A DNA stretch of 61,531 nucleotides, filler included, from Sluysia triapertura (lineage: Eukaryota), in NCBI GenBank assembly GCA_046118255.1. It is 5 parts of 5 records of this genome, joined end to end, with 100 filler letters (N's around TTAATTAATTAA, not from the genome) between each part and the next. Parts side by side here need not be neighbours in the genome. Positions count along the whole stretch, not along the records: positions 1 to 13,538 come from JBJNIA010033822.1; 4 more parts are not named here. The stretch is one strand, 5' to 3'. The translations under genes and the position numbers were made by a program. How positions within the stretch are numbered: position 1 is the first letter of the stretch; every line of letters begins with the position of its first letter. Shown here piece after piece: positions 1-61,531 of the stretch. Below the pieces are notes generated by a model. That model did no database searches, was not told where the DNA came from, and worked only from the letters and a program-made list of their open reading frames with translations.

Positions 1-1685
1 TCGTAATAATAATAGCGATAGTTCATGATAATTAGATGTGATGGTCATGTTTGTTTTTGAATGAGTTTAGTAGTTTGATTAATAGTCTGTGTATATGTGG
101 AGTGTTTTTATATGATGAAATGTGATGGATTTTATGTGATGAATTCCCTACATAAGCCCCTTTTTGAGACGCGGAGCGTAAAGGCGTAGTGAAAGAGACC
201 TTTTTAACGTTATCGATTGTTCTTACCGGTTCTCTTTTATTGAATAATTGAATAGTAGCTCCGGTATCAAAAGTGACTGATTTAATTACTTTCTTAGATC
301 ATTTGTTTTGTTATCGATTAAAATTGTCGCTGGTTTGACTTTGCACCAATTGACTGTTCGATAGCGGTTTGGTTCTCTTTGTTTATCCTTATCACTTTGT
401 ACGGGACGGTATATCGTGGCTGCAATGAGTGAGGATTTTCTACAATCAACCAGACATATTCGCTACCGGTGATACTTTGCGGTATGTATACACGCGATGC
501 ATTATTATGTACTGGTGATTTGTTTAATTCATTGAAATATTCTCTCAGATGTTTAGAGAGAGAGTATTCTTTTGGCGATGTAGTATCGAATAATTCGTGT
601 GGTAATCTTGTACTTGTACCAAACACGATTTGAGCTGGGGAATATCCGGTAGATGAATGTGGGATATTTCTCCAACCAAGTAGTATGATGGGCAGTGCGC
701 TGACCAATTATGTTTAATTGAAAGTGCTGGCAAAGAACTTTTAAGTGTGCGATGAAAACGCTTTATCATTCCATTTCATTGCGGATGACAGGCTGTTGTT
801 CTTAATCTGGAGCTTCCTAGATGTTTTAATAGACTATTGAAAAGCTCGGATTCAAATTGTTTACCTTGATCGGTAATTATTCTTTTAGGCACACCAAACC
901 TAGCGATCCAATGCGTTAAAAGAATATTTGATATAGTTTCAGTAGATATTGAGCTCATCGGAAACGCCTCCGGCCAGCGACTGTGTTGGTCTATGATTGT
1001 TAAAATGTAAGTATATCCCCTTGAATTTGGGAGTGGACCGACGATGTCCATGTGAATTGTCTCAAAAAGTTGACCGGTTGGAAAATGGAGAATTTCCGGT
1101 TTGGTATGTTTGGTTGTTTTTACCGCCTGGCAGGTGAGGCATGCTTTGGTCCAGTTTTTGACGTCTTTCCGCATAAAAGGCCAAATCACTTTTGATTTCA
1201 AAACTTCGTATGTAGATTTGGCACTTGAGTTCGTTGTGTTGTGGATAAATTCAAACGCTTTGATCCTCAGGTTTGGACCAAGGACTAGCCGTGAAATTCC
1301 TGATAATTGGTGATCGAAATACTCTCCCTCTCGTAAAGTTGGTATGGAAGAAAACTTCGATAGATCTTCTGATGAAGGAGGATCACCTTTTAGATCTTCA
1401 ATAGAAAACATCGACTGAAATTCGGTGCAACTGATGCCAACTCATGACAAGGCATCAGCGACCATATTTTCTTGCTCAGGGATATGTTGTATATCGAAAT
1501 TAAACTAGAACAAGTAGCTGATATGCCTTTGTTGCCTTGGGGAAGGATTTTTCATAAAAAAGATAAATAGCAAAGGCTTGTGGTCGGTCCGAAGCGTAAA
1601 TTTCACTGGCATTAGTAAGTATTCGAAATGTTTCACTTCCAGGTAAATTGCCAAAAGTTTACGATCAAAATCAGAATATCGTGTT
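1..1685 (-). mobile_element. Ty3/gypsy LTR retrotransposon 3' part: RNase H, integrase, polypurine tract and start of the 3' LTR (decayed)
   Basis: Minus strand reads RYSDFDRKLLAIYLEVKHFEYLL...RTDHKPL...NMVADALS (RNase H, ~1685-1440). Integrase follows in ORFs 776..1411, 545..769 and 318..707: C-x2-C (CLTC), IHMDIVGPLP, TDQGKQFES, and a GPY/F-like LQPRYTVPYKV. PPT AAAAAGGGG at 165-157 is followed by TG at 152 (LTR start). Stops and frameshifts are present. Confidence 0.93.
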
Positions 1686-1934
1686 TATGGTCAAATTTAC
1701 AATTATGATAATATTGATCGTCATGATCCTACTCAACAATAATATTATCAACATTACCATAATCGATCTCAAGTTCGAGAAATATTGTCACATTCACTTC
1801 GAGCCACTGGTAAATTGGGTGAAAACGAAAAGCAGGAAGTACCAGACAATGAATGGAAGTTCGCAGCTAGAGCAATGGACTGATTTTGTATTGCTATTAT
1901 TATCATTTCTTCGGTAACTATTAGAACTAAATAA
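1683..1934 (+). pseudogene. Orphan C-terminal remnant (MA helix and M4) of a nicotinic acetylcholine receptor-like subunit
   Basis: The frame not shown in the ORF track reads ...QVREILSHSLRATGKLGENEKQEVPDNEWKFAARAMD*FCIAIIIISSVTIRTK*. This matches the nAChR M4 signature EWKFAAxxxDRxC. In-frame stops at 1740 and 1881. It directly abuts the truncated gypsy RNase H. Confidence 0.75.
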
Positions 1935-3059
1935 AAGCTTTGAAAATAAATTTAATAATAATAATAATTGTAATAAATTATTATCAATGTTATAAACGTA
2001 ATTATTCTTGTGATCTTTTTAATATACTTTTAATTTAATGGTTGATATTTAATTATAATCTTGGTATTTTCAATCTTTAAATATAATAGGTCGTTAACTA
2101 GCAATAAAATAACTAAGTTCATAATTAAAAATTAATGTTAATAAAATTTAATCAATGGCTCAATGTATGATACTTTGAAAAATTGCGTTAAAGTAGCTAC
2201 GGTAATTGTAATATTTTATTATATGTATGAAAAAATGTATGGTTAACCACATAATGTTTAAGATATGCTGCGCATGAATTTGAAAAAATTATACCGGATA
2301 CTTCAGATTTTATCAATGAATGTTACGATACACATTCCGATTATTGTCAATCTTATGTAAATTTTAGTCTTCCGGATCGTGCAGAAATATCGCAATATGA
2401 ACATTTTATTCTTCCTAACAATTATTCGTCTTATGCAGCTAACAATACCTCAAGACTTTAAAATAATTGTTTTATTTCAACGTTGGTATTATTTATTATG
2501 TTACTTTTTTGTTATTAAAAATTTTCTTATTAAAATTGGTTAAATTAATTTTGTTAAAATACCTCACTTTTAAGCCTAATGTTTTTGTTAACGCAGTTCT
2601 AGCAAATTATAAAATTTTAAAGAATAAAATGGTTAAAATAAATAGAATTCTTATTCACTTTGTTACAAACTTTACATTTTTGAAACTTATTTACAAACTT
2701 ACATTCCTAAGAGCAAGTAAGCCCTCCAACAGTCACAATCTTAATTCTTCAATAATACTTAATTTATTCTTGAACCATAAGTTATATGCCTTATATCTTT
2801 TTCGTCTTTAACCAAACCCAAGACAATAATTATTATTAATTATATTTCATTTACTTTTTACTTTAGTTTCCTTAAATTTTTCAAATGAACAAATATCGCA
2901 GTTGCAACTTCGAAATACATTTGAAATTATATAAATTTATCTGATTATTATAAACGTCCCATTTAACATAGAACTTATATCCGCTTTTTTATGATAACTG
3001 TACAAAATATGTATTTTATATTTATTATCTGAAATAATCGATGACTTTTTATACTTAAG

Positions 3060-6000
3060 GTATGGTATAAACCAGAATTTAGTTGGGAAAATATACATAA
3101 TAACATTTCAGTCAATTCTATTCGCATAGAAAGTAAAAATATTTGGATACCAGATACTTATGTATTTAATAAGTAAAATTATTATGAAAATATTAGAATT
3201 ATTTTTATTCAGTGCAGCTGATAAAGATTCTGGTTTTCTTAATGGTGACTATCTTATTATTCATAGAAATGGTAAAATTCACTTTCCTCTTAGAAGAAAA
3301 TTAAAGACATTTTGTCCAATGGATATAAGCATGTTTCCTTTTGATACTCAAGCTTGTACAATAAAATTAGGTTCATGGGTTTCTACTGGCATTAACTACA
3401 CATATCCCAAGTAAGTTAAATTCAATTTTTCAATATTTATCATAAAATGTGAGCAACTGGAAAATTTTATTGGTTTGATTGGATAAATTACTGAAATAAT
3501 ACTTAGTATATTAAAGAAATGCAATCCTTAACTCATCCAAGTTAAGTCACTGTATTTATATTCAACGGTAAGATTATTTCAACATTTGCTATTGATACTG
3601 AAAAATTTGAAAATTATACTTTGTGGTGATAGTTTATGTTATGTTTGATTTAATCTTACATCTTAATTCTTAGTAGACTTTTGACTTTAATTCTTAAAAA
3701 CTGTTCCTGTTCTGATAATGTTAAATGTGAAAACAGTCAAATTATATTCCTTAATATAAAATTTTCAACTTGCGCTTAACGTAAAAACTAATAACTTTAC
3801 CTTAAGCATTTACATTATATTTATGAATTACTTCGAATATTAATATCTATAATTCTTTACTGACTTAGAATTAAAATCTTAATTATTAGTCCATTGATTC
3901 TAAATTAAATTAATCTTTAATTTAAATTTTTATAATTTTATAAATTTTCTTTGTAACTTTAGCTTAAATGTACTACTTATCGTTTACTTTATTTAAGATC
4001 TTATTTATGAATTTAACTTTCGGAGATGGAGTTCAATATTCGTCTCTCTTAAGGATGGAAGTGCTAATCAAATTTTTATAACCTTTGGCTTTTTAATCGG
4101 ATTCTGTTTTTCAATTCCCCGAACCAGAAATCAACAGGATATTAAGCTTTCATAAAATTTTAGTAGTTGTTGAATTACAATAATAACTGGGTACACAATT
4201 ATTCTAATTTAAATTTACAAAAATCAACAGAGTTTAAGTCTTAACAAAGTTTATCAATATCACACAAAAAAAGTTATAATTGAATTACAATAAGTATTGA
4301 ACATACACAGTTATTTTAATTTAAATTTATTTTTATCTCAAGTTTTAATTTTATAATTGCTAAAATAAACACAATGTACTTTAAGTAATAGTTAATAGTA
4401 TAAACTATAACTATCAAAAGTTATTATTCAATCAGTAATCAATATTTGACCAGTCAACCACGAAATAAGTCAAACCAAAATAAATCAATGCTCCTAAATC
4501 TATAATATTCACTTATATAATTTAATAATTAATTTTAACATATGGTATATAATGTTCTTTCAGCAAATATACCATCATATAGTTTAATATTAACGTATTA
4601 TTTCAGATATACGTTATTGGTATAACTTAATAATTCAATTTCAACATATTGTATATCATGTTTTTTCAGTAAACACGATTAATTTTTCCATAATTTTATA
4701 TACAACATTACAACAACTTACATTCTTAAATTTACGATACATTAAAGATGAATCGGTGCATTATAAATGCATTTTATTTAATTACATTCTCTTTCATTGT
4801 CAAGGAGTCTTTCTCTCCAACGCTAATCTTACTATAATTCAGAAAAGCAGATGTAGAATTCAGTTGTAAATTTATTTCAATTTTTTACTTTTTTATGAAT
4901 GGATTAACGTCAACCGAATTTTTTGAGTGGACTCCAATAATTTGTTTTCTTTGGGAAGATAGAGCAGGTGAAAGGTTTAGTGGTTGAGGAATATGTTTAT
5001 TTAATTGATATTTTGGGGTCTGGTAAGATGTAGTATAGTTGCATCATATATAAGTTTCAAGCTGATAATAGGATTGGTGACTGCATTATTTAATGTGCGA
5101 ATTGTATCAAACCCAATAATAATCTAATAATCCATAATATCGGTTTAATTTGTCATTACACCAACTATAGGTAGGTCATGACCCTTAAATTCGATCAGCT
5201 GTCAAGAATTTGATCGAATTAATATCATTTCATGTACCTGCAGTGATTCAAAACACCTTATTCGAATATATGCATGAATTGGATTACAGTTGATTCTTAC
5301 ATCTTTCCAAACGTAGAATTTATCAATGTTAGTATTGCCTAATCTTAGTAATGGCATCGTGTTGCTCCCAGTTGAGCTTTTTTCATGTCTCACACAGACT
5401 TTTTGATTTCGACCATCGGTAAATCGAAACGATAATTGAAATTACAGTCCAACTGAATTCACCTACTATAGTTTTTATTCTATTAATCCTTGTGTATTAA
5501 TTTCAAAATGAAGTTATTTTTAACTATAGTTTATGTGTATATATTACAATGCAAGAAAATTTATATTCGAACATACAATTATATAAAGATGAAATTCAGT
5601 GTTAGCAATAACATATTATATCAAATCACAAAGTAAACAGTTAAATTAAAACAATCAAGTGATTTGAGTGCTAATATCTTATCGTCACACCAACAACCAG
5701 GGTTGACAGAACTAGTATTAATTTCCCAAAATAAATTCTAATATCTCCTTAGAAATAAATTGAGCAGGGAGTTTCCTCAAAAAATCATAAAAATAATTCT
5801 GATTTAAATGTATCTAAATGGTAATAAATTAATAATTTACCAACTTTTAAAATCCCTTTAAAAATGTACAAGGAATCTCCAAAAAATTAATTTTAATTAA
5901 ATAGATGGGTAATTCCTTAAAAATACTTATTTAAAAGAATATGGGGATTCCTTTTGCAATGATGAGTAAATAGTTAATTATTTTTACTTATAATTTTAAT

Positions 6001-9000
6001 TTATTATTATAAACAAAATTATATTTTATATTAAAAATATTATAAATCATAAATTTTACCATATCTTGGAATCAGCACTGGGCCTCTCCTTGGTAATACG
6101 GTTGACTTTCACGTACTTCTTTTATACTTTTTCACTCTTCAATCACTCTTAAGCTTTTCAATCAAACATTCTCTCAGATAAATCATTACAACATTCTGTG
6201 AGAGAATTAAACCGACAATATAACTTTGACAGTTAAATTGTACGGTCTGTCAAACTGTACCAGATACAGAACGCAATAAATTGATTTATGAATATCTATT
6301 ATTTTCCTTTACTCTACTCAACCTACTTTTACTTTTCACACTAAATTAACAATCACCAATATTGTTAACATGCATAAAAATAATGAATTTAATTTTAGTT
6401 TTTGAATTCAATTGATTTTTGATTTTTCACACCCAATTTTCTTCTAAAAAACGTTTAAGGTCATTATCCTTAAACAAACCATTCTTCAGATATTTCGCAC
6501 TCATTTCTAGGTTCTCCTCTTTCATAGCAATCATTTATATTCAAAATTCATTATATTTTCATCATTCTAAGTATAAAAAATTCAGTATTCAATAATTAAA
6601 AATTAATTAAAATTTAACTTTACTCAATACTAAGGCTTTCCTTTCATGAACTCGATCGAACAACCTTTATAGAAAGGTTTTTTAAAAAATTGTGTACGCA
6701 GTTTCAATTTTGACACAGCGTTCAAACTTTATTCACAAAAATGTACTTTTTCTTTATTAAGTTAATTAAGAATTTAATTATTTAATTTATTTTTAGACTT
6801 AATCTTATTTTATGTTTAAATGTTTTATTAAGGTTATCTATTTCTTTTATTTGATACATTGCATACCAATCATCGTCATCCATTCCGGCAAAATCTTGAA
6901 CCGGTTCACTTTCATCATTTTTCATAAGATAAATGTGATTTTTTTGATCCAATGAAAAATGTGATGAATATTATGGACGGGTTATTTCGTAATGACCATA
7001 TTTCTTACAATGGTTACTATATATTCTTCCTCTAATGTCAACTTTATTTCTTTCCATATAAAATTTATTTTCATTATCATTTTTAAATCTAATTCTGTTT
7101 GGAAATCTCTTTGGTTGTCCATATCTGTAATCATATCTTCTTGACGAATTGTTTCGACAATCTCCTCTAGAAAATTGTGTCTATTGTCCTAATGGCGTAA
7201 CTGTCCATGAATCTTGCCTTATCAAAGTCCAATACTTCCTTAAGGACATCCGTTCCCATAATCATATCTTCGGGTTATTTTCACATGACGCTTAATTTAA
7301 CATCGAATTTTGGCCTAATCCACAATAGGATTTCATTATACCGACTATATGTATTGCATCTCCCGTAATTCATGCTAAATGTGGCAAATGGTCGGTGAGT
7401 CCTTTTAATTCAATATCAGTAAGAAACTTTTCATTTATTAGTGATGTCGCCGCTATAATTATTCTTCCATTTATTCTTGTTAACCACGGATCATATTGCT
7501 CCGCTATGATTATTATTAGCACAAATCGTATAAATTACGTTTTGTGGAGATGACGTTGAGGAACTGGATAAACTCGTTATTTCATTTCTTCTTTTTAATC
7601 CATTATGTCTTTGATTCCATTTGATTTTATTGCTTGTAATTCTATGCTTTGCCTTTTCTTTTTTAATGCATTTATATGTGATTTTGCATGGTGATATAAC
7701 AAATATTTGTCAGGAACAGAAAACAACCGATTATCAATTTCCAAGTAAATCCTGAGATTTTATATATTCATACAATTAAAATACTTGTAATATTATCAAT
7801 ACTTTAATTATTATGTAAATATCTATTAATCCCGAAAATACTTGGAAAAATTAGGAAACTACCCCAAATGATCTAGGCCTAAAATGATCTACTAAAATTT
7901 TGTCTACTATATCTCTTAACACTTTTGCCTTTAGAGGGAATAAAATTTCTTCCCACGCAGCTTTTATGGTCTTCTTTGGTGTAGATACCTTAATGTTTTA
8001 ATTTGCCTTTAATTTAACTTTAATTTGCCTTTCAATTCTGTTAAACCTATCACTTTAGATGTTTTAAACTGTGAAGAAGTGATGTCCACATACTGTTGTC
8101 AATTTTGTATTCTGAAGCTATTGCACTTGAACAATACATGAGTTTTGGTTTTATTTTATTACTCGGAAATAATATTCTAGTTACTGGTTCTAAATATGTT
8201 TCAATTGTATTTTCACCTTCTTACAAAACCTACCGAGTACTCCTTCTTCTAGTGGTAACAATAGTGCTACTAAGTCTGGATTAGTAATTGCCATTGCCAG
8301 ATTTGTTCGTAATATTTCTTTATTTTATTGGCAATTTCTTGCTACCGTAATTTGATATATTTTCTCCAGAGTCATTAATCCTAGAAGGTAGTAAAATGTC
8401 TTTTTTATTAAAGTACATATTCAATTTCACGTTTATGGGTCAATTTCCTTTTTTAGTATTCTTTGTTCTGATGTATAAATACCTCTATAATTCGTCTCCA
8501 TAATTTCCTTATCGCACCATAATTCGTCTACTTTTGGTATGGAAATCCAGAAACTAAATTAAACTTAACTTGTTTCAAAAATATTAAAGGACATTGAAAC
8601 TTATTTAACCATGTTACAACTGGTTCTATCGGCCCTGCAGTATGGTCATGACATCATGGTCCTTTTTCGAAAGCAAACTTTCGTTAAATGACTTTAAATT
8701 TATCACATAAGTTTCTTGGGCTATTGCATTATGATAAAGTTTCCTTATTCAATTTATCTATGTATACATTTCCCGCTGTTCTAATATTATAAATTATTTT
8801 TTCATTGTTACTTATTCTTAACTTATCTCCCTTGTTTAACTTAACTGGTTTAACTTAACTTAATTTAACTAGTTTCGAAAGGTTTTAATATGCTTGATAA
8901 CTCCATTATTGAAGAGTTGCTATGGTGCCCACAATGCCACAATGTACTTTTTTTTACTAAGGTTGTAAACGAATTTTCTTCTTGATAGACATTTAGAATT

Positions 9001-11604
9001 TTTGTTCCTCTTATTTGGACTCTGTTAGGTTTTCTTCGTGTACTTCTTCATCATTTTCATCTGATACATTTAACTTGTTTTTGGTTGATGTCAGATTAAT
9101 TTTATTTTCCTGTTTATCCCATCCTCGCAAAATGTCTTTAACTTTCATTCTTTCTTTTTCTATTGCTTCTATATCTTCTTTTCTTTCCATATCTTATTTA
9201 ATTATTTTATTTTAATTATGTTATTTTATTCAAAAGATTCAAAATATGTCCATAGCTTATAAAAGGTTTCATTTTCACTTTCTTGCGTTATTCTTGATAT
9301 AGCTTTTTTCTTAGTCGTTATCATAGTATAATTTTATTCTTGTAATACTCTTGCTTCTTCTTCCGTTAAATTATTTCGATTTTTCTGTATTCATTTTCTT
9401 CATAGTCTTCATCATAACTATCGTAATCTTCATGTTTTCTGTTTTTTTGTATGTCATAATTACAATTTATCTGTCCTTTACTATTTTTGTCATCTTTCTT
9501 GTCGAAATTTACTTTTCTTACAAGGCCTTGTATTCTTAATGGTTGGTAATCGTGTTACCTTACTTAAATTTTTGCTCTGGGTACTAAACTTTTATTGCAA
9601 AAGCAAATTCGTATAGAGTTTCTAATTTTTCTGTTTTCTAATTTTTATATAATATTTTGTTTTTTGAATTATTTATCTCCTTGAATGTTTGAATCGCTAC
9701 GTCTGTTAAATAATTTTGAATTATTTAATTTTGTTTCTACCTCCGTCTAGCCGTTGGCTTTTGCTAAGATGCCATACTCAAACAAAAAATCACAAAGTTC
9801 ATTTTCATTTCCGTTAAACTTAGACACATATGGCAAAATCACTGTAGGTTTAATATTATTTGAGATTTGCGACATATATTCCTTAAATTAGTTCATGGGT
9901 AAATTCATTTTTATATTCTCCAAAGAAGTGCGTCTATCGTTTTCAGATTCCTACTGTTTTTTAATCTCTATGACTGTACCTTATAGATTAAGGTATACTC
10001 TTTAATCTTACTTAAATTACATAACGCAGTCTTATACTTAATTTTAATTTGTCTTAAAGACGTATAATTGGATACTTTTACTTATATCAATGATTAATGG
10101 TACCAATTCGGGCGCCAAATGTTGCTGCTTTTCACTAAATTGAACTTACCTAAACAAAATCTACCTTAATGGTTATGAGTTCACCCAAGTTTGCGGTTTG
10201 CTTTTACTTAGATTAAGAGGCACCTTTCGGATTTTTAGCTAGAGTTTTATAAACCTTACTTAATTATTTACCATTCTATCTTGTATGATGAATTCAATAG
10301 TTTATTCAAACCCTTTTTCTTTTTAATATCAAGAACTTAGTTTTACGTAAGGGACTAATTATTATCCATGTAGTTAATCTGACTCTTATTCTTAGATTAT
10401 TGATAAATATTTGTGTCTAATAGTTTCTTGCTAGCTTTTACCTTTTTAATGTGAGCACAGATTAAATATTAATAACAAACGAACAACTTAATACCAATTT
10501 TTATTATATCACAAAACTAAGTAATAAAAATACTATATATATGCTAAAGTGTACACTTTCGATAAAAATGAAGCAAGTAATAAAAGAATAATGTTTATTG
10601 CTCTAAATTTCTTTAATTAATATTTTAAAAAATGACCTTGTCACTGAACTTATGCGAGCATAAAAATATAAATATTTTAAAGTGAGATTTTATGCCTTAC
10701 GTAAACTTATGGATTCTAATTCATAAAAAATTTCCAAAATCTAAATGTTTTCAGGATCGACAATAATATCAGAATATAAATTATCAAAGATCCAATGGTG
10801 ACACTGCTTGAAGGATGTCGATGCTAATTGATGTGTAGGTTGGAAAGATTGAGAATATTGATAAGTCTTGTTAAATATTTTTATGTGGAGTTTATGTGAA
10901 AATAGTTGTCTTTTTATACTTGAAAATTGAGCATATTTATAATTCTAAATTAATTTATTTACAAATATTAACATATTTATAAATCCAAATTGTTAATTTA
11001 TAGAAACGTTTATCTTAAGTCAAATATTAATCAATCTATTTGATAAAAATATTTCAGTTATTTCAAATTTAACATTATCAGTATAAAAATATTTATAATT
11101 TCTCACCAATTATCTGTTTCATAACTTTTTTCTTTATTGATATAATAATAATAATTATTATTATTGTAAGTAAATAATAACTGAATTTTAAATTGATATT
11201 TAGAAATATTAATGGCACTAAACTTATAAATTTGGATAGTTACACAGATAACAGTGATTGGATTCTTTCTGAAGCACGGATTCATCATCAACATACCACC
11301 GATATTATTAAAGATATACATTATCCAGTGAAGAATTTTGACAAGTCCATCAATTTAATCTCAGAACAGAGCTATAAATTAATTATTATCGTACTGATTC
11401 TAAATAGACGTAGTTTTTTCTACATTTGGATTTTAATTGTTCCATTTGCAATGTTAACCTTATTATCGATTTTGACATTTTGTATGCCTAGTACATCTAA
11501 TGAAAAACTAACAATAAGTTTATCGATTTTTATGGCATTCTCAATGTTTATGATCATGATTTCAGAAAGAATTCCTCCATCAACACAGAATGTTCCTTTA
11601 ATTG
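3060..11604 (+). CDS. Cys-loop ligand-gated ion channel, nAChR-like non-alpha subunit (partial; exons 3060-3172, 3213-3410, 11204-11604)
   Basis: Exon 1: VWYKPEFSW...IRIESKNIWIPDTYVFN. Exon 2: Cys-loop CPMDISMFPFDTQAC and loop B GSW. Exon 3: M1 (RRSFFYIWILIVP), M2 (NEKLTISLSIFMAFSMFM) and IPPSTQNVPLIG. GT..AG introns of 40 nt and 7793 nt have matching phase 2. N-terminal exons, intact M3 and M4 were not found; a possible MX remnant MSPKWCCGIIF lies at ~11750, so the gene may be decayed. Confidence 0.88.
5060..5400 (-). mobile_element. Degenerate retropepsin-like (gypsy protease) remnant
   Basis: Minus strand VRINCNPIHAYI... followed by IIIGFDTIRTLN, resembling the V.ING....A.IDTG and ILGMD motifs. 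The catalytic DTG is lost. Confidence 0.35.
5680..6400 (+). repeat. Dispersed LTR-like repeat, homologous to 60540-61531
   Basis: Shared blocks: caacaaccagg(g/t)ttgac, taaattg..agggagtt.c subrepeats, caata(t)aactttgaca, tttcctttactctactca. Confidence 0.7.
6850..10762 (-). mobile_element. Ty3/gypsy element copy A: 5' LTR, PBS, gag, chuvirus-like glycoprotein, protease (pol deleted); lies in the nAChR intron
   Basis: LTR end CA at 10121-10120 is followed by PBS TGGCGCCCGAA. Gag reads MSQISNNIKPTVILPYVSKFNGNENELCDFLFEYGILAKANG (from 9875). Env motifs: NVYQEENSFTTL..LWHCGHHSNSSI (~9000-8905), LRTNLAMAITNPDLVA, ETYLEPVTRILFP..CSSAIASEYKID, TM region ~7870-7720. Protease: RINGRIII..AATSLINEKFL and DMIMGTDVL (~7490-7240). 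The LTR start at 10762 (TGTCGA) is tentative. Confidence 0.85.
10107..10117 (-). promoter_or_regulatory. Primer-binding site complementary to the 3' end of tRNA-Lys(UUU)
   Basis: Minus strand ...GCAACA tt TGGCGCCCGAA, matching the first 11 nt of the tRNA-Lys3-type PBS, 2 nt after an LTR-terminal CA. Confidence 0.85.
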
Positions 11605-13466
11605 GTTTGTTAATAACTTATTTTATTAATAGTTTACACCTAAAATAAGTTCTCTTGTCTTTATAATATGATTTCTCAAGTATGAGCTCTATATATTTCC
11701 TATTTAGAATAAATATAATTCTAAATAAATTTTTTCAAAGGTCGTATCATGTCACCAAAATGGTGCTGTGGAATTATTTTTTGAAAAATGAATTCCAACT
11801 AATCAGAAAAAGTATAACAATAACTATTAAAAAATTATCTTTTATAAAGTTGGGATAAAATACAGATAGTAGATAGTGATAGTGTCAAAATTTTGGTCGA
11901 CTCGTGAAGTACACTTTTTTCAACACTAAAATAATAAAAGTTCCTCCAAATTGATTTAAATTTTATTGAATGCACATACAATATGACCAAAAAACATAAT
12001 GTTTATTCATATAAACATAGTATTATATTTCTATTACTTGTAAAATTATAAATGGCCTTTATTTTTCACCCACAAAATTAAGTAAAGTTCAAATTATTTC
12101 GTATAAAGATTTTAATATCAGATAAAATTTAATAGCTAAAAATTAATAGCTAAAAAAAGTGATTTCTTAAAAAATATAACTTTCCATTTCTTTTACATTC
12201 TGAAAGCTTAATTCAACATAAAGATTACCATGTTTCTCTAGATTCGTAAGCAAAAATTTGTTTGTATTATTTGCTTTAAAAGTTTTAGTTACAATTCATT
12301 AGTTTTGCATGTGTACACCTTGTCGTTATTAAATTTCAGTGTCATTAAAAAGATGAACTGACTTATGTTGATACCGTTAAAAGTAGGTAAGTGTTTTAAA
12401 AGAGGTTCAATTATTTTAAAATAGCTTTCGAATAACTGATTATTTCAGAAGAAATTTTATTCCACAAAATGGATCTTGTATATATAATTGTACATATTGT
12501 TGAATTTCTTCTTGTTTATGCATTTATGAACACACTATATTTAAAGGATATTAAATTCTTGCTTTGTTTTTAGGATAAATAAAAATTGATTATGCAGACT
12601 ACTTAATAAATAATGCCGCTCTTCTAACTGTATAGGAATTTCCTTGCGCATTAAAGAGCTTGGTCGCAAGAGCAAAGTTCCTGAGGATATAAAGGAAAAG
12701 CCTCTAATAGATAAATTCAAAAGTGGATTTGCGTAAGTTCAATAGATAACAAATCCTTTAAGTAAGTAGTTAGGAAATTAAGAGATGTTGAAAGTTCCCT
12801 AGCTGAAGAAAAAGATAAAATAAGTTAAATAATTGAAGAAGTTACATACAATCAATTCCTTTGTTGGAACAAAAGTGACACTCATTACTCAAACCAAATT
12901 AGATTAAATCCGACAAGTCTTGTCAAATCTTCAATCTTCCAAAAAAGTAAATTTGACTTTACATTATACTTTTCTACTTCTTTATAATTTTAAATAATTA
13001 AATTTCTCTTTAAAATGACATTTTTGTAACATTATAATCACAAACCTAAATTTAAATATGATTTTTTTCTAATTTTAACAACTTCATTCACATGAAAATT
13101 ACTTTTCAATGCTCCATAGATCAACGCACCTTTTCTGATTTAATAAATATCAGTTTCGGAAATGTTTCTTCACAAAGATTCATTATATATGTTTCTTGTA
13201 CATCCGATTATTCACGATACGTAATTCCTTTTTAACACTTAAAATTGGGCATTAAAGTTAAAAATGTGAGTTAAACTTGAAACTTTTTTAAATGTATGAA
13301 TCCAAAATTGTATGTAGATGTTTTTGTTTTTTTCACTGATTAGTTAAACAAATAATTTAATATTTTATTGAAAATAATAATTATTATATTATATTATTTT
13401 TATCTGAAATTGTTATTAATATTAATATTTTATTATTATTTACATTTATCATTATTATTATTTACA

Positions 13467-13638: not shown

Positions 13639-13972
13639 TTAGTTTTTAATTGATTTTGATATTCATAAAATTCAATCATAAAATTCAATTTGGCGCCAGA
13701 AAAGTTACTTTGAGTCTTATATTTAGGCATTAAAATTCCATTCAGACCTACAAACTGAAAATCACGATATTTGGAATTACTTATTTAATAGAAAAAATTG
13801 TAATTTGAAAAAATGATAAAAAAATTAACTATGATTAAATACGCAAAATAATCATTAGATCAAAACCACATCTTGACACTGTTAGCTGAATTAATAAAAC
13901 AGATTCATACATTCTACGTTGGGTATAGCATTAAATGCTTGCGTAACTGTTAAATTAAATGTTTAGGAAAAT

Positions 13973-14031
<59 letters not shown>

Positions 14032-14032
14032 C

Positions 14033-15390
14033 CTTCAAAAACAATTAAAAATTCATCTGTCGAAAGTTGGATACAACATAAAGGTTCAAAATTAATATCC
14101 CTTAAATAATGCAAATGTGAATCTAAATTAGCCATATTTTTTTGTAATAAAATTAATGTTTGAGGTTTTGGATTATTTACATTTTGTACATCCCATATTT
14201 TGTAAAGGGCTACACAATCTTGCATACCAACAAGAATCATTGTTTCATTAGCAACTGAATTTGGTGCATTAAGATTATTATTATTATTGAAAGTATTTAG
14301 AAATTCTATTGAAAATATATTATTTTGACAAGATATTTCTTTAATTTTTTTATGGCGACCTTGTTCTAAAGTCAATTGATACAATATAAGCGTTGAACGA
14401 AACGCTGCACAAAGTATCCAACAAGTGTGAGATGATTCCATTGAAAATGAACGTGATAAATGGTAAGATGCCAAATTTATAGATGATTGATTGGAAATAT
14501 TGCTTGTGTGAGTCCAACATTGAGCTACTCGAAAACATGAGCAAGGAATACGAGTTGAAGCACCAGCATCAACAACAATGGGATCAAATTCCAACAGTGG
14601 AGTTCTCAGTCTAGATTCTGTGAAAATACCCGAGAGTATTAAACGCAGCTGTCGTTGTTTACCTAAATGGAAATACAACTTTTTCTGAATTATAAAAATC
14701 AAATTAGTAATTTGTAAAGATAAGAGCCAATAAAAATTAAATTCAATAAAACTTTTATATTTATGATCTTAATATAAACATCTTATAATATATAAGATCT
14801 AATAATATGTCTTACGATCTTAAGTTTTCAGTTTTACTAGATGATCTACTTTCACATAAATGTATATGTCTTTAAATTATTTCTTAATAATACATAATAT
14901 TTGTCTAAACCATGGTTTCTCAACCATTGGGTCAAAAATTTGGCAGCAAAACAATCTGAAAAAATTTTATTGAATAGCGTGATAAAAATGTTAAGAAACG
15001 CTGGTCTAAACTATCGCAGATACATTTAAAGTCTGCTCTTCACAATGTCACATTAAGATACATAATGCACAAGAGTATTGTTTTTATGTAAACGATCCTA
15101 TTTAATAAAAATTAAGATTCGTATAATATATTAAAATTCTAGCGGTTTCATAATATATACAAATCCATATCTATTAAGTGTGTATAGAGTTAATTATTAT
15201 CATCAAATTTTAATGTATTATCAAATAATATTAAATTGATTAATCCAAAATTAGTTAAATCAAATTCTAAATTTAATTCTTGGATATAAAACAAAAACCT
15301 AACCTTGAACAGCAACAATCAATTGTAAGTCATCTTGATTCAAACATTCAATAATAAATGTTGGTTTTTTATCACCGACTCTAAATGATC
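14033..15390 (-). CDS. MRCK/Citron-family kinase, CNH domain (exons 15390-15304 and 14662-14033)
   Basis: Spliced reading SFRVGDKKPTFIIECLNQDDLQLIVAVQG|KQRQLRLI...FEPLCCIQLSTDEFLIVFE resembles the MRCK CNH domain (RVGDxKK..., SGRNRHVRL, EYLLxF). GT..AG boundaries with matching phase 1. Confidence 0.75.
14911..15003. mobile_element. 93-bp hAT (Buster/Charlie-type) MITE in the CNH-gene intron
   Basis: Perfect 8-bp TSD GTCTAAAC (14903-14910 and 15004-15011). Imperfect TIRs CATGGTTTCTCAAC / GTTAAGAAACGCTG. Confidence 0.85.
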
Positions 15391-27418: not shown

Positions 27419-28452
27419 TATTATATTTTTACAATATTAAAAATTACAACATAATTCACTAAATCCACTTACTTTAACACGTTTAGAAACGATCAATTAA
27501 TTCCATTCCTACATCAGACATTCAAACAAATACCAAATAACGGATTTACCTATTCTACTCTATTACCATAAATTCCATGATCGTAAATTTAATTTTTCTA
27601 AGTTCCGATAGTTTCATTTAAGATGATTCGAATAATCTTCAACAATTACGGGAAAGTAAAATTTGTACGTGTTTAAATTTTTACAATTTAAAGCAAGAAA
27701 ATTACAAGAATTTTACGAAAAGTTAAAGAACGCAAAAAATCTGTACTTAGGTTGAAATAATTTTTTTATTAGTTTGAACTTCACTATTTAAACGAACAAA
27801 GAGCGATTATTGTTACGATTTTGATGATCGTAGTGAAAAATATATTACTGAGAATTATCGTTACGCCTTTAGTGATTTTAGTAAAGAAGACATTACTGCG
27901 ATTCTATTATTCGGAACTTGCTGATTATATTTTTTAATCTATAAACGTAAGTTTTTTCATTTTAAGTTACAAAATATACGCAGAATCTTTAAACTGTACG
28001 ATTGTTTTTCGACATTCGATATTAAAATGATACTCTCTAATATCTTAATATTTTTACGTTATATTATATTAATTACCAATGGTTAACAAATAATGTTTAT
28101 TCGACATAAATCACTAATAGAATTTAAACAAACCCTCAAATTCGATTTGTCGGAAATCGAATGTAAATCATAGATTGTAAACGAACTCATAAGGATCTAC
28201 ATTATTTTGCTTAGGTAGGAAATAAAAGAAAAAAACAGCATTAAAAAGAAAGAGCTCACTAAGTTTCCAATTCCAATTATAAATTTAATTACATTTTCGA
28301 GCTACATAATGCAGCTTTTCGTGGATTTAATCAAAGCCACTCGAGATAATAATTTTAACAATGGAATTTTTCGTTTTTTCTAGCATTATCACTTCAGAAT
28401 GCTAACAGAATTAGTTAAGTTTGCTCCGAGTCATCATTAATGTAATTAATCA

Positions 28453-28776
<324 letters not shown>

Positions 28777-29674: not shown

Positions 29675-29870
29675 AACGGAGTGTCAGAGAGATAAAAATG
29701 AACATTTAAAACGCTGCATAAGCCACCAGAATTATTTGTTGCGTCTATGGAGAAAAAGCAGTCAGTGAACGAACAGCACAAAAGTGGTTTTCAAAATTTC
29801 GAAGTTCTTCCCCATCCCACGTATTCGTCTAACCTAACCCCAACAGATTTTCATCTTTTCCGCTCCATCG
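29675..29870 (+). mobile_element. Internally deleted mariner transposase
   Basis: ECQRDKNEH, ATRIICCVYGEKAVSERTAQKWFSKFR (HTH), then EVLPHPTYSSNLTPTDFHLFRS (YSPDLAPSDxHLF motif). Confidence 0.85.
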
Positions 29871-30800
29871 GTTTTGTGAGATTTTATATTAATTCTAGAG
29901 AACTTAATGAAATAACGAGAAAAGATGAATATCCTTTACCACATATAAACGACGTGTTAAATAAACTTGGAAATTCTAAATACTTTACAAAATAGGATTT
30001 ACAAAGTGGTTATAGCAAACTAACATCTGAAGAGGACTATTGAATGTGAAAAAATGCCTTTGGAGCACCAGCTCCATTTAAACGATGCATGAATTTCGTA
30101 CCAGAAGGGTGTCAACATACAATGGTACATATAGATGTTATTATTATGTATCCATTGGATTTTGAAAGGTATTTAAAGGATATCGAGGAAGTTTTCATTC
30201 GATCAAAAAATGCGAAAATAAAAATAAAACCAACAAAGTTTGAATGGACAAAAGAGAAGGTTGTATCTTTAGGACACATACAGTTACAACATGCATAAAA
30301 AAGATAGAAAAGGTTACTAACTTTACTAAGCAAGTAGAAGTATAAGCTTTACTTGGTTTAGCAAATTATTATAGAAAATTTGTAAAAAACATTTCAGCAA
30401 TAGCAAAGATGTTGCACTTATTCTTATAACAAGTGCAAGTGATTTTGCAACTGAAATGGTTTTAGCACAAAAAAATAGTGATTAAAAAGAATGCATAATC
30501 ACTTATCAAAGCTCTAGATTAAACACCTTGAAACAGTTCAGACAATATGTACTAGGTCACAAAAAATATATTTATAAATAGATCATAAAGACACTATTAG
30601 AAACGTGACTGGAGTTTAGCAAAATAGCAGAATATGATATTAGCATAACTGATAGAAAAGGAATGTATTGATTTTGTCAAAACTTGAAAAAGTAGAAATA
30701 CGAAACGAAAAAGGAGAAATATGAGCAATGGTAGTTAACATTAGGAAGAAAGACAAGAGCAAAGAGAAGATCCAGAATTAAAGCTCATAATCCATCTCAT
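29871..30800 (+). mobile_element. Decayed Ty3/gypsy RT-RNase H
   Basis: RELNEITRKDEYPLPHINDVLNKLGNSKYFTK*DLQSGY, MVHIDVIIM (YxDD box decayed), LLGLANYYRKFV, FRQYVLG. Resembles the RT of the 37-38 kb element. Confidence 0.85.
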
Positions 30801-36809: not shown

Positions 36810-39800
36810 CTCTAGGTATTTACATATTTCTATATATCTAAATATTTACACAAGAATTTTGTATTTTATTTTAATGTACGTATTACGCACAACTGTAAAT
36901 ATGTATTTTATTTTATTGATTTTACATCACTATGGCACTGGTGTTGCGAAATTGTATGCATTACAGCTATTATCCTTACAATTTCACTAATATGTCTTTT
37001 GTGTGGTGTATCTATGTTGTGTGATGTAGAATAAGAATTAATGTTATTGTTAGAAGAAGAGTTAAAACAAGGTTAATTAAAGTTGTCAGAATGTGATGTC
37101 TCTGGGACAAATCGAGATGGAAACATCGACAGTTACTAGTTGTTGTACAAGTTGTAGCCACTAAAATTGTAAATTGAATTATAACAATTTTGATTCGCTT
37201 AAACTTAATTAAAAAATTCACAATTTTAAGTTATAATAAAAGTGTTAAAAAGTACCACAATATTAATAAGTGAAAAAAAATTAATTTTTCGTTATTAATC
37301 AAAAGATCCGTATAGTATACAATGACAGAAATTTTACCATATCTCCTGACATCGTCCCTATGATTATATAGATATGTTAGCGGTTTGTGATCAGTGTATA
37401 AATAAACTTTCTGTCCTAATAAGTAATGTCTGAATAGTTTACATTCGTGTAAAATAGCCAGACATTCTCTTTCAATTGTAGAATAGTTCATCTCGGCCTA
37501 ATTTAGTCGTCGACTAGCGTATGCAATTACTGCTTCCGAATTATTTTTGTCTTTCTATCCGATGATTGCACCAATAGCTTAATTACTGACATCAGTAGTT
37601 AGTATAAATGGTTTATTAATATCCGGTTTTTTAATTAGTCGTTCTTTTAATTCCTTAAATTCCTTAGTCTGTTCGTCTGTCCACTTAAATTCGACATTTT
37701 TCCTTGTTAACTTTCTGAGTGGTTGTGCTATATTAGCAAAATTCTTAACAAATCTTATAATAATTAGCTTCATAGGAAACTTTGAATCTCTTTTTCATTG
37801 TCAGGTTGTGGAAATTTTACCAATTTTCTATATTTCTCGGATTGGGCTTTATTCCATCTTTTGACACTGTGTCCTAAAAACTTTTTCCTCGGCCCAAACG
37901 CATTTGGTTTGTTTAATTTTCAATCTATCTATTTTTAGTCTATTTAAAATATTGTCAATATCTTTTATATGTTTGTCGAAATCTTTAGAAAATATTATTA
38001 TGTCATCATAACATTTTTGCATCCTGATAGTACAAAATTCATGCACCTCTGGAACGTTGTAGGTGCACCAGTTAATCCGAATAGCATCTTTTCACATTCA
38101 TATAGTTCGTCGCCACGAGTAAATGCTTATGTTTTTCGTTTTCAGCGATATCGATTTGCCAATAACCGCTCTGTAAATCAAGAGTTGTAAAGTATGTGGC
38201 ATTTTCTAATTTATCCTGCATTTCATCTATCCGCGGTAAAGGGAAAACGTCTTTCCTTGTTATCATATTTAGTTCCCTAAAATCTCATCGTACCATCTTT
38301 TTTCTTGACTAATAAAACTGGAGATGAGAAAGGTGAGAAAATTGCCTTTTTCTTGATATCTATTTGTTCTTGCATAACCTTTTTGATTATTTATCGGTAT
38401 TCTGTATGGATTTTATCGGATTACTTTATCTATTATTAATGGTTTCTCCAATTTCTTGCAATTTCTCTTGGGTAACGATAAATAACACTGAACTATTGAT
38501 CTATTTGTTTCTTAGTCAAATTTTTATTAGTAATTTCTATTTCGCTATAATCTTCGTCTTGTATTTCATGTTGTAACTTTATATTACTTTTTACCTTACT
38601 TTCATTTTTATTTTCCGAAATTATGTTAATGTGTTCTGTATAGAGCCATTTATGTAATTTATTGCATACTGCATAGCTATTCCTATGTTTAACTTTTCTT
38701 GATTAACCTCTTATGCGATAAATATGATATTTCCGGTTAACAAACTGTTTGTCTTGACTGGCATTATATATTCATTTCTTTTTACTAACCACATTAGTTC
38801 GTAAACATATACATCGTCATCATCAGTGGCTCTATTTGATGGACTATATATATATATTGGTTAAAATCTAATGTTATTCCTTTAAATTGAAATAATATCT
38901 CCATTCCCATTATCATTTCTTACGGACTTTTTTTCATAACTCTTAATTTAATTTCTAACTTATTTTGTCCTAATTCCCGTATAGCTTTCATTACTCCGGT
39001 TATGTTAATTGCATTGCATGTGACTTCTGATAGATGAGAGGTATGATTAACTAAATTTTTTAATTCATCTTTATTTAAGAAACTTTCATTGATTAAGGAG
39101 GCTACTGATCTTGTATCACTTAGTGCTATTACTACTCTACCGTTTATCCTAGCATTTACTATGATTTACTATGAATCATTATAATTGTTGTTAGCGCATA
39201 TCATATATACCACACGCGGTGGTGGCGTTGAAGTAATAGGATAGTCCTTTTTTCTGATTTTCTTTAGTTGTTTCTATAGCTTTCTAAATTTCAATGTATT
39301 TTTGATTTTTTTATTATTTCTTCATTTTAACTGTTTTGTAACGTCTGTAATTGTTGTATTTATTCCGTGTATTGCCTTTCTTTTCTTAATGCATTTGCAT
39401 GGTGGTGCAAGAGGTATTTGCCAAAAACTAGAAACATCCAATTATTAATTTCCACGTAAACTCTGAGATTTTATAAATTCCGACTACTGAAAATGCTTCT
39501 GAAATTATTAACGCTATTACTTTAATTATCATATATATTAATTATCATATATATATCATAATTATTCCTATTAGTCCAGAAAACGCTTGCCCTAATATTA
39601 AAAATTTTTTCCATATTTGTTTTAATGTATCTTGTGCAGCTCTTTTAAAATGATTGCGCCCTCCATAGTAATTCGAAATTTACCTGTCCATTCTTTTCTA
39701 CTGTTGCTTTATTTACGATTTCAGTTAATATATTTCCCGCCAAGCTGCGTGAATATCATCATTCGTATAAATGCCAGAATTTTGTATATTTTTGTAGCTA

Positions 39801-40701
39801 AAATTTTTAGTTTTCCCTTTAACTCGGTTAGTCCTATTATTTCTGGAGTTTTCACCTGGCTCCTATGCGGTAATAATATCCATAAATTATCATCAATTCT
39901 ATATTCCGGCGCCATGACATTAGATCAGTGCATTAATTTTGGTTTGACTTTGTTATTTGGAAAGATTACTCTGGTTACTGGTTCGAGGTATGTTTCTGTT
40001 TTACCGTATAATATAAGTAATTCATTCGGTGGTTGACCTTAATTGCACTTCTACCTTTATACATTTGTACGTTTATAATACCTCTCTCATTACCAGACCA
40101 AAAACTCCTTATTCTAGTATTAGTAATGGGGCGACTAAGTCCGGGTTTTTAATAGCTATTGCCAATTTTGTGCGTAGAATTTCTTTTTTCATTTGACATT
40201 ACCGAGTAACCATAATTTGATAAATTTTTTCTAGAGACATCAGACCTAAATGATAGTAGAAATCGATTTTATTGTTAAAATAGGTATTCAATTTTATATT
40301 TTTCGTGTCGATGCCTTAGCTTGTTTGATTATTTTTTCTGAAAGATAAATTCCTTGATAGTTAGTTTCCGTTATTTTCTTTCCACAACGAATTACTGTTC
40401 ATTGTACCTTTTTCCATATCAAAACTCTCATTAAATGATTGTAAACTTATTCGTATGTCTTATGTGCGACAACATTATGATAGATTTTTCCTTCATATTC
40501 TATCGTTCCTTGTTCGCACGTCCCATCTATTAATACATTTCCGGCGGTTCTTGTATTATAAATTATCTTTTCATTGTTTCCCATTTTTAATTTATCTCCT
40601 TTTATTAAACTTATATAACCGGTTTAAAATGCATCTCTGCATTGCTTAGGTAATATCTTAAATGGTTTGAGTACATTTGATAATTATATTATTGATGAAT
40701 G

Positions 40702-60539: not shown

Positions 60540-61531
60540 AATAGCAACAACCAGGTTTGACGCAACAGACACTAACAATATCTAGAAAATTAATGGTAAT
60601 TATGTTATTTAAATATTTTAGGTCAACGTAACAAAATGTGACCACGATTACAATAAAATCTATTGGTAACAATAACTTTAAAGAAAAACTTAACAGTAAT
60701 TTCTAAAGATAAAACACTTAGTATTTTGATAAATTAAATTGCGTAGGGAGTTCCTATTCAATTCACCTTAAAATAGCTGAAAATTCAAATGTAATTTAAA
60801 TAAAATCTTCAACAAAATTACGTAAATTGTTTCTCAATTAATTACCTTAAAAATAACTAAACATCAAATATAATCTTAATAAAAAAACTGTGTAGGGATT
60901 TTCTTCTAAAAGTATCTTAAAAATATCTAAAAATTAAATATTATCGTTAACAAAAATTGCGTAGGGAGTTGCTTACAAAATTACCTTAATATGTCTAAAA
61001 TTAAATATTCACAAAAATTACTTGGAGTGTTTCCCATAAAACTATTTTAGTAATAACAAAAAATCAAATTTTAAAAATTTACAAAAATTGCGTGGGTTAT
61101 TTCTCACAAGACTATTTTAATAGTAACAAAAAATGAATCAAATTAATAGCTTATATAATCTATTATATATAATATAATATATAATCTATTACTTATCTTA
61201 TTTTACTATAATAAAATAAAAAAAATAAATGAAAACTTTACCCTATACATGGGTCTTCATACCATTGTGTCATTGTACCATTGTGTCATCATTGTTATTG
61301 TGTTGTAAAAATTTTGAAATCTTTATGTTATACTCTCTCATCATCCAATCACTTCACAGTCTCACAACCAAACACTCTCTCACATAAATCATCCAAACCT
61401 CTTTGAGAATCAAACCGGCAATAACAACTTTGACAATTACATCGTATTGTCTGGCAAACTTTATTAGGTACAAAACATAGAAATCTGATTTATTATCAAC
61501 CATCATTTCCTTTTACTCTACTCAGTCTATT
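60540..61531 (+). repeat. Dispersed LTR-like repeat with internal subrepeats, homologous to 5680-6400
   Basis: aaattgcgtagggagtt.. units at ~60736, 60890, 60955 and 61085. The 3' part aligns by eye with 6150-6330. Confidence 0.7.

Follow-up and report, generated by a model that had tools for sequence, protein, structure and literature searches.

Planarian gypsy elements of the Burro and GYPSM1 type carry an envelope gene (env) related to the fusion proteins of mononegaviruses in frame between gag and the protease, and decaying Burro fragments are present in Dugesia japonica (available part of PMC6431247). The accessible sections of PMC13524379 report GAG-ENV-POL elements with an env of the glycoprotein B (gB) type from Nematoda, Bryozoa, and Platyhelminthes, six of them from Schmidtea (Smed_errantivirus_1-6), and cite BEL/Pao elements with a chuvirus-like glycoprotein. 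The layout with env before the protease is already published (PMC6431247, PMC13524379). Two decayed elements with this layout, copies A and B, were analyzed in a window of 61,531 nucleotides from Sluysia triapertura (assembly GCA_046118255.1), which consists of five joined contigs of animal DNA with ca. 25% GC. Both are very probably broken insertions of a family of Ty3/gypsy retrotransposons with long terminal repeats (LTRs), likely from a planarian flatworm, with a gB-type env between gag and protease. The placement of env before the protease is a real, inherited order of this family and not the outcome of chance nesting, because the duplication of one dead locus fails to account for A and B and because intact relatives carry env and protease in a single frame.

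Gene order in intact relatives and comparison with known elements

The complete order from capsid to integrase is shown by an intact relative, locus L001, and not by A and B together, from which the original prediction had assembled the series from primer binding site (PBS) to RNase H. L001 was obtained by scanning metagenome contigs with an alignment of two sequences (1 of 331 stretches confirmed) and encodes, in a single intact frame of 3,703 amino acids, a capsid, two zinc knuckles, a spacer, a signal anchor, env, protease, reverse transcriptase (RT), RNase H, as well as integrase. Pfam places zf-CCHC at residue 356, the fusion protein at residues 1469-1877 (E 1.3e-83), the protease at 2137-2232, RT at 2448, RNase H at 2694, and the integrase at 2908-3080. 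L001 is collinear with B between the N-terminus of env and RNase H; its collinearity with A covers env and protease. Its env as query found 3 of 3,594 candidates; word-based protein searches with the broken frames of B found none among 880 and 799 candidates, and a scan of viral contigs none among 8 stretches. Env and protease are joined in one frame or protein in L001 and in the relatives P0002/P0005 and P0008, and the env of four relatives tried is 37-41% identical to that of A and 40-48% to that of B. The RT-RNase H region of B (PF17917/PF17919; 55% to L001) is 55-58% identical to L001 and P0005, both of which have the pol order protease-RT-RNase H-integrase (PR-RT-RH-IN), and the best of its seven matches among solved structures is Ty3 (E 1.6e-14).

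The env is a class III fusion protein of the gB type. Single frames of A and B, as well as L001, match Pfam family PF24664 (Monjiviricetes_fusion), the same family is the first match in an Atlas look-up (score 0.92), and all 39 rows listed by Foldseek for a fold model of env are class III fusogens (herpesvirus gB, GP64, and thogotovirus GP); a sequence search of PDB returned nothing for env.

A and B are two dead copies of a further family that fits the GAG-ENV-POL errantiviruses on every feature with a clear result. Gene order, gB-type env, and Ty3/gypsy-type pol are shared; env lies directly upstream of the protease in A, B, L001, P0002/P0005, and P0008, and the motifs of env domain I in A and B match by eye those of the six Schmidtea rows in the accessible part of PMC13524379. 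All five occurrences of the motif VYQE in the available portion of supplement 2 of that paper belong to Schmidtea elements, and both A and B carry VYQE; because of these env motifs, a planarian flatworm is the likely host. Gag precedes env in L001; a capsid precedes it also in A, but that locus is scrambled, and nothing gag-like precedes it in B. Unlike the described elements, A and B are dead and not intact, and A has a Lys-type PBS, whereas the nine flatworm rows in the accessible part of PMC13524379 list none (8) or another type (1).

The family also works like Burro, but it falls short of the giant open reading frame (ORF) of that element. Likenesses are the CCHC knuckles, an env placed in frame behind gag and ahead of the protease (L001), an additional segment separating protease from RT, and traces of ubiquitin-like and Bcl-2-like domains in the spacer of L001 (E 0.018) and P0001 (E 0.00096), both below the cut-off of Pfam. 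The extra segment is dUTPase-like in Burro; B and L001 share a segment in this place, but that of L001 has no dUTPase match in Pfam. With 3,703 amino acids, the L001 protein is shorter than that of Burro (4,873-5,140) and has no Pfam match to BIR, MATH, or ankyrin domains, nor do A or B. It differs from Burro also by two tandem aspartic protease domains behind env (residues 1976 and 2154; likewise in P0005) and by a signal-plus-anchor module after the integrase. Compared with Burro as described, A and B possess a single protease, and neither a ubiquitin-like nor a Bcl-2-like domain is detectable in them (profiles gave nothing above reversed decoys); both are broken, with one frame change in common, whereas a Burro-like single frame with env is seen in L001. 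The presence of an RNA-virus-type fusogen in an LTR retroelement is shared with BEL/Pao elements and the hookworm Atlas virus, which likewise encodes one polyprotein. However, Atlas virus is a belpaovirus with the order gag-pol-env and a class II fusogen (available part of 10.1101/2021.11.23.469668), and the RT/RNase H of the A/B family is closest to Ty3 and not of the BEL/Pao type.

The gain over the described elements is modest: a decayed family with a Lys-type PBS is added to the flatworm gag-env-pol elements, its env is shown to have been kept by selection over deep divergence, and L001 provides a compact, intact natural example for studying the predicted membrane threading and cutting. 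Behind the integrase, L001 (residues 3305-3609) and the C-terminus of P0005 continue in the same frame with a hydrophobic signal, ca. 270 residues, and a second anchor, which may represent a second membrane protein in the polyprotein; Pfam has no match for the segment of L001. Two further ORFs lie past the polyprotein (L001 11375-12043 and 12085-12870), the second of which, judged by eye from a motif, presumably resembles a DEDD-type exonuclease (Pfam without match). A second LTR was not found within the examined part of the L001 locus.

Hydropathy and general knowledge of viral polyproteins suggest how a live element of this family would operate. It would make one long protein, in which the hydrophobic stretch before env (L001 residues 1208-1226) would start translocation and bring env into the lumen of the endoplasmic reticulum to fold there; the env anchor (residues 1774-1792) would then return the chain, leaving capsid and enzymes in the cytosol and env in the membrane. 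Signal peptidase and the protease of the element would cut the parts apart, and equal numbers of capsid, env, and enzyme molecules would result. Particles are predicted to bud and to fuse with other cells, allowing spread from cell to cell, and tRNA-Lys would serve as the primer of reverse transcription. Once inserted, A and B decayed independently: A lost its spacer and signal anchor and, by rearrangement or fusion with a second, nested copy, received its nucleocapsid behind the protease; B took up a 3-kb insert and lost both ends.

Divergence, selection, and decay of copies A and B

As had been predicted, A and B are located on different contigs and have diverged; their flanks are unrelated, and they align over 1,517 bases at 72% identity, starting at env domain I and extending through the protease, with an extra block at the N-terminus of env (Table 1). 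The five env and junction peptides initially read in A are present on the minus strand (8942-8907, 8312-8265, 8202-8164, 7767-7720, and 7550-7509), but they occupy two different frames, and numerous stops and frame changes separate them. The junction peptide, said to be the same in both copies, reads PPRVVYMICANNN in B (39222-39184) and is similar but not identical in A, its frame being backed by third-position changes (13 of 28 mismatches). Its reading as a zinc knuckle was rejected; the peptide aligns with the run-up to the protease.

Table 1. Positions of copies A and B and of their parts in the window.
Feature	Position	Strand	Evidence
Copy A	10121-6893	minus	contig 1
CA dinucleotide, putative 3' end of 5' LTR	10120..10121	minus	2 nt before PBS; only final bases of LTR visible
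tRNA-Lys(UUU)-type PBS	10107..10117	minus	shuffles and tRNA match (see text)
Decayed gag capsid	9567..9860	minus	33% over 97 residues to L001 residues 50-169, 0/100 shuffles
Unassigned link between capsid and env without zinc knuckle or signal anchor	9040..9500	minus	sequence tests
Broken env of gB type, membrane anchor, beginning of tail	7628..9029	minus	PF24664 E 0.0032 on one frame
Junction peptide, broken aspartic protease	7200..7550	minus	37% over 86 residues to L001 protease 2, 0/100 shuffles
Gag nucleocapsid-like stretch, decayed zinc knuckles, behind protease	6893..7162	minus	35% over 75 residues to L001 residues 369-447
Copy B	43975-37354	minus	contig 4
Env signal anchor and N-terminus, unbroken	43715..43975	minus	36% over 87 residues to L001 residues 1212-1299
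Foreign insert in env, 3,009 bp	40702..43710	minus	CATT on both sides, hairpin, helicase and finger fragments
Remainder of broken gB-type env, anchor and tail	39319..40698	minus	PF24664 E 1.9e-16 and 2.8e-7; 47% to L001
Junction peptide and aspartic protease, altered catalytic motif	38830..39222	minus	Pfam Asp_protease E 0.0036
Segment between protease and RT	38466..38815	minus	26% over 116 residues to same L001 segment, 0/100 shuffles
Broken RT and RNase H, Ty3/gypsy type, stops short of integrase	37354..38442	minus	PF17917 E 1.2e-29

Selection was tested on 18 gap-free A-B blocks of at least 24 bases (shorter blocks were dropped); the frame of each block was that of best identity, and the identical rule was applied to 1,000 neutral permutations. 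In env (13 blocks, 258 codons), mismatches numbered 55, 40, and 121 at codon positions 1, 2, and 3, a third-position share of 0.56 against a null maximum of 0.47. Synonymous divergence (dS) was 1.53 and nonsynonymous divergence (dN) 0.17; the resulting dN/dS, a measure proposed in the original prediction as a check for past purifying selection, was 0.11 (bootstrap 0.04-0.17), and none of the 1,000 permutations gave a value as low. This shows that env was kept under purifying selection while the two lineages diverged. Relative to L001, the env of A has 15 frame changes, 6 stops, and 10 deletions of at least 5 residues, and that of B has 7 frame changes in its aligned part. In the comparison of the two copies, six stops are private to A and nine to B (for two of the latter, both in one block, the frame is doubtful), one occupies the same codon in both copies but as different stop codons, and the deletions differ. 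Because dN/dS in env is low and the stops are mostly private, the lineages of A and B parted while still alive and died independently.

A frame change common to both copies and a stop at the same codon would fit an origin of A and B as duplicates of one already dead chimeric locus, the case that the original prediction had named against itself. With a dN/dS of 0.11 at a dS of 1.5, private stops at 15 of 16 positions, different stop codons at the shared position, no shared flanks, and the same order in intact relatives, such a duplication is scarcely credible. The low ratio, the private stops, and the single frame of the intact relatives instead bear out the inheritance of the env-protease order.

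Copy A opens with CA-TT-PBS (10121-10107), which is the sole match in the window and was matched in none of 100 shuffles; 10 of 12 bases of the PBS agree with the 3' end of tRNA-Lys(UUU) given in the accessible part of supplement 1 of PMC13524379. The predicted LTR end and tRNA-Lys PBS are thus present, but the LTR as a paired repeat has no second copy in the window. The predicted capsid is likewise upheld, with a homology to L001 that appears weak but real; Pfam has no match for it. What did not survive is the claim that A supplies a native gag upstream of env. Compared with L001, A lacks the knuckles, a spacer portion of ca. 750 residues, and the signal anchor in the interval from capsid to env. 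A stretch resembling nucleocapsid is found past the protease (0 of 100 and 0 of 300 shuffles as good; no match in Pfam), at the place taken in B and L001 by the segment that leads on to RT. These differences indicate that copy A has been rearranged or has fused with another, nested copy, and that its transition from gag to env is not native. In the link between capsid and env, a nucleocapsid test was no better than chance (80 of 100 shuffles equally good), no hydrophobic window was found, and 9172-9095 shows a faint likeness to the Bcl-2-like region of P0001 (3 of 100 shuffles equally good). The catalytic motif is absent from the protease of A. Homology of the DNA past this protease with that of B was rejected (40 of 200 shuffles, 12 of 58 control windows).

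The flanking of the env-protease block by capsid and nucleocapsid, whose summed distance is like that of one gag gene, and the missing signal anchor at the left join could also indicate that the LTR end, PBS, and gag of A belong to a different gypsy element, with the block inserted into its gag; A would then be silent on what precedes env. This origin is quite improbable, since the gag of L001, a relative with env, matches the capsid (33%) as well as the nucleocapsid (35%) of A, which makes the same family the simpler source, and the joins show no target-site repeat beyond chance (the longest shared word, of 6, is reached in 947 of 1,000 shuffles). The family order would be unaffected, since it is shown by L001.

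In copy B, none of 100 shuffles was as good as the match of its protease to both proteases of L001. Upstream of env, 44000-45640 (minus strand) is a decayed coding stretch of ca. 500 codons, acidic and basic in character and with no significant match, which is probably the spacer of the family; a ubiquitin-like and Bcl-2-like reading of this region is visible by eye but unsupported by tests. The insert in env starts with TTGTGG and ends with CAACACA, both ends are flanked by CATT, and both are defined because copy A is uninterrupted at the matching place. The insert contains a hairpin (ca. 42737-42803; -23 kcal/mol, no shuffle control) and a cargo of DEAD-box helicase and CCCH-finger fragments; a sequence look-up found no look-alike. 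Judged from its sequence, it seems to show both ends of a gene-capturing cassette and as such may matter more for the genome than the layout of A and B.

The shared frame change behind the env anchor

Several points weigh against the interpretation of A and B as broken members of a single-frame family with env between gag and protease. Neither copy is whole, and there is no LTR pair and no integrase; no gag homology was found upstream of env in B (41 of 100 shuffles equal against the gag of A, 8 of 30 against the spacer of L001); selection is weaker in the protease region (4 blocks, dN/dS 0.25, 14 of 1,000 permutations); the fold model of env is poor (mean pLDDT [predicted local distance difference test] 42, TM [template modeling] scores 0.11-0.20); the topology is based on hydropathy only, and the flatworm host is inferred from env motifs. 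Moreover, A (ca. 7706) and B (ca. 39417) leave the frame at the same codon just behind the anchor (L001 residue 1821) and reach the protease with equal net phase; under descent from a single-frame ancestor, this requires parallel slips.

The common exit and phase would find another explanation if env and pol did not form one frame in the A/B sub-lineage and the enzymes were dosed against gag-env by a programmed frame change behind the env anchor or by a separate start of pol. The sub-lineage would then have given up the single frame in which its relatives read gag-env-pol in favor of a recoded one; most products would be gag-env, and only some would include the enzymes. About ten codons on, a stop closes the anchor frame of both copies at aligned positions, the protease frame of A is open for 72 codons upstream through the tail, and the available part of PMC13524379 describes three ORFs for such elements. 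Yet both the dosing of enzymes and the conversion to a recoded frame are improbable. All five relatives with a matching motif are in frame at this position (L001, P0002, P0003, P0005, and P0008; three independent lineages), and with 10 and 6 frame changes over the 356 codons common to both copies, chance alone puts some of them on the same codon in 16% of trials and within one codon in 40%. As read from the sequence, A and B have no canonical slippery heptamer in common, and the homology to L001 runs on to residue 1848 in the tail frame and not in the protease frame. Parallel slips in descendants of a single-frame element are the likelier cause. Among 12 of 24 rows from contigs of the sequencing run that matches copy A, none was informative on the frame change at 7706. 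If recoding were true, it would constitute a new way to dose enzymes, in which retrovirus-style ratio control has moved from the gag-pol to the env-pol boundary.

Sequencing depth and genomic setting

One sequencing run, probably the source, contains copy A. Its contigs repeat the copy without substitutions (one contig of 693 bases has 14 gap letters), and one contig spans the env-protease junction (7039-8607). The summed depth over the env, gag, and PBS bins is 1e4-8e4, compared with 12-24 for the contigs of the copy A locus itself; it gives no copy number, but the excess points to many relatives of copy A. The protease has low cover (145-245), which is not decisive, and the summed contig depth over 6200-6870 is very high. 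RNA data sets with copy A are not listed.

Copy A (record JBJNIA010033822.1) is flanked by plus-strand exons of a ligand-gated ion channel gene (3230-3400 and 11181-11648; Pfam Neur_chan_LBD E 1.8e-11, Neur_chan_memb E 9.8e-9) and appears to be antisense within an intron of this gene. The region around 1790-1920 presumably encodes the last membrane helix of another channel gene, as judged from a motif. No tRNA genes were found in the window. Two other gypsy fragments, an RNase H-integrase piece at ca. 300-1700 (minus strand) and an RT at 29870-30417 (plus strand), belong to two different elements. The former was rejected as the end of copy A: it is 5.5 kb off, past a host exon, has 39-41% GC, and is only 33-45% identical to L001 and B. 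Host exons on the minus strand encode CNH (13950-14768) and MOZ/SAS acetyltransferase (28450-28776) domains, and a 200-bp repeat with 73% identity connects 6122-6320 with 61328-61524.

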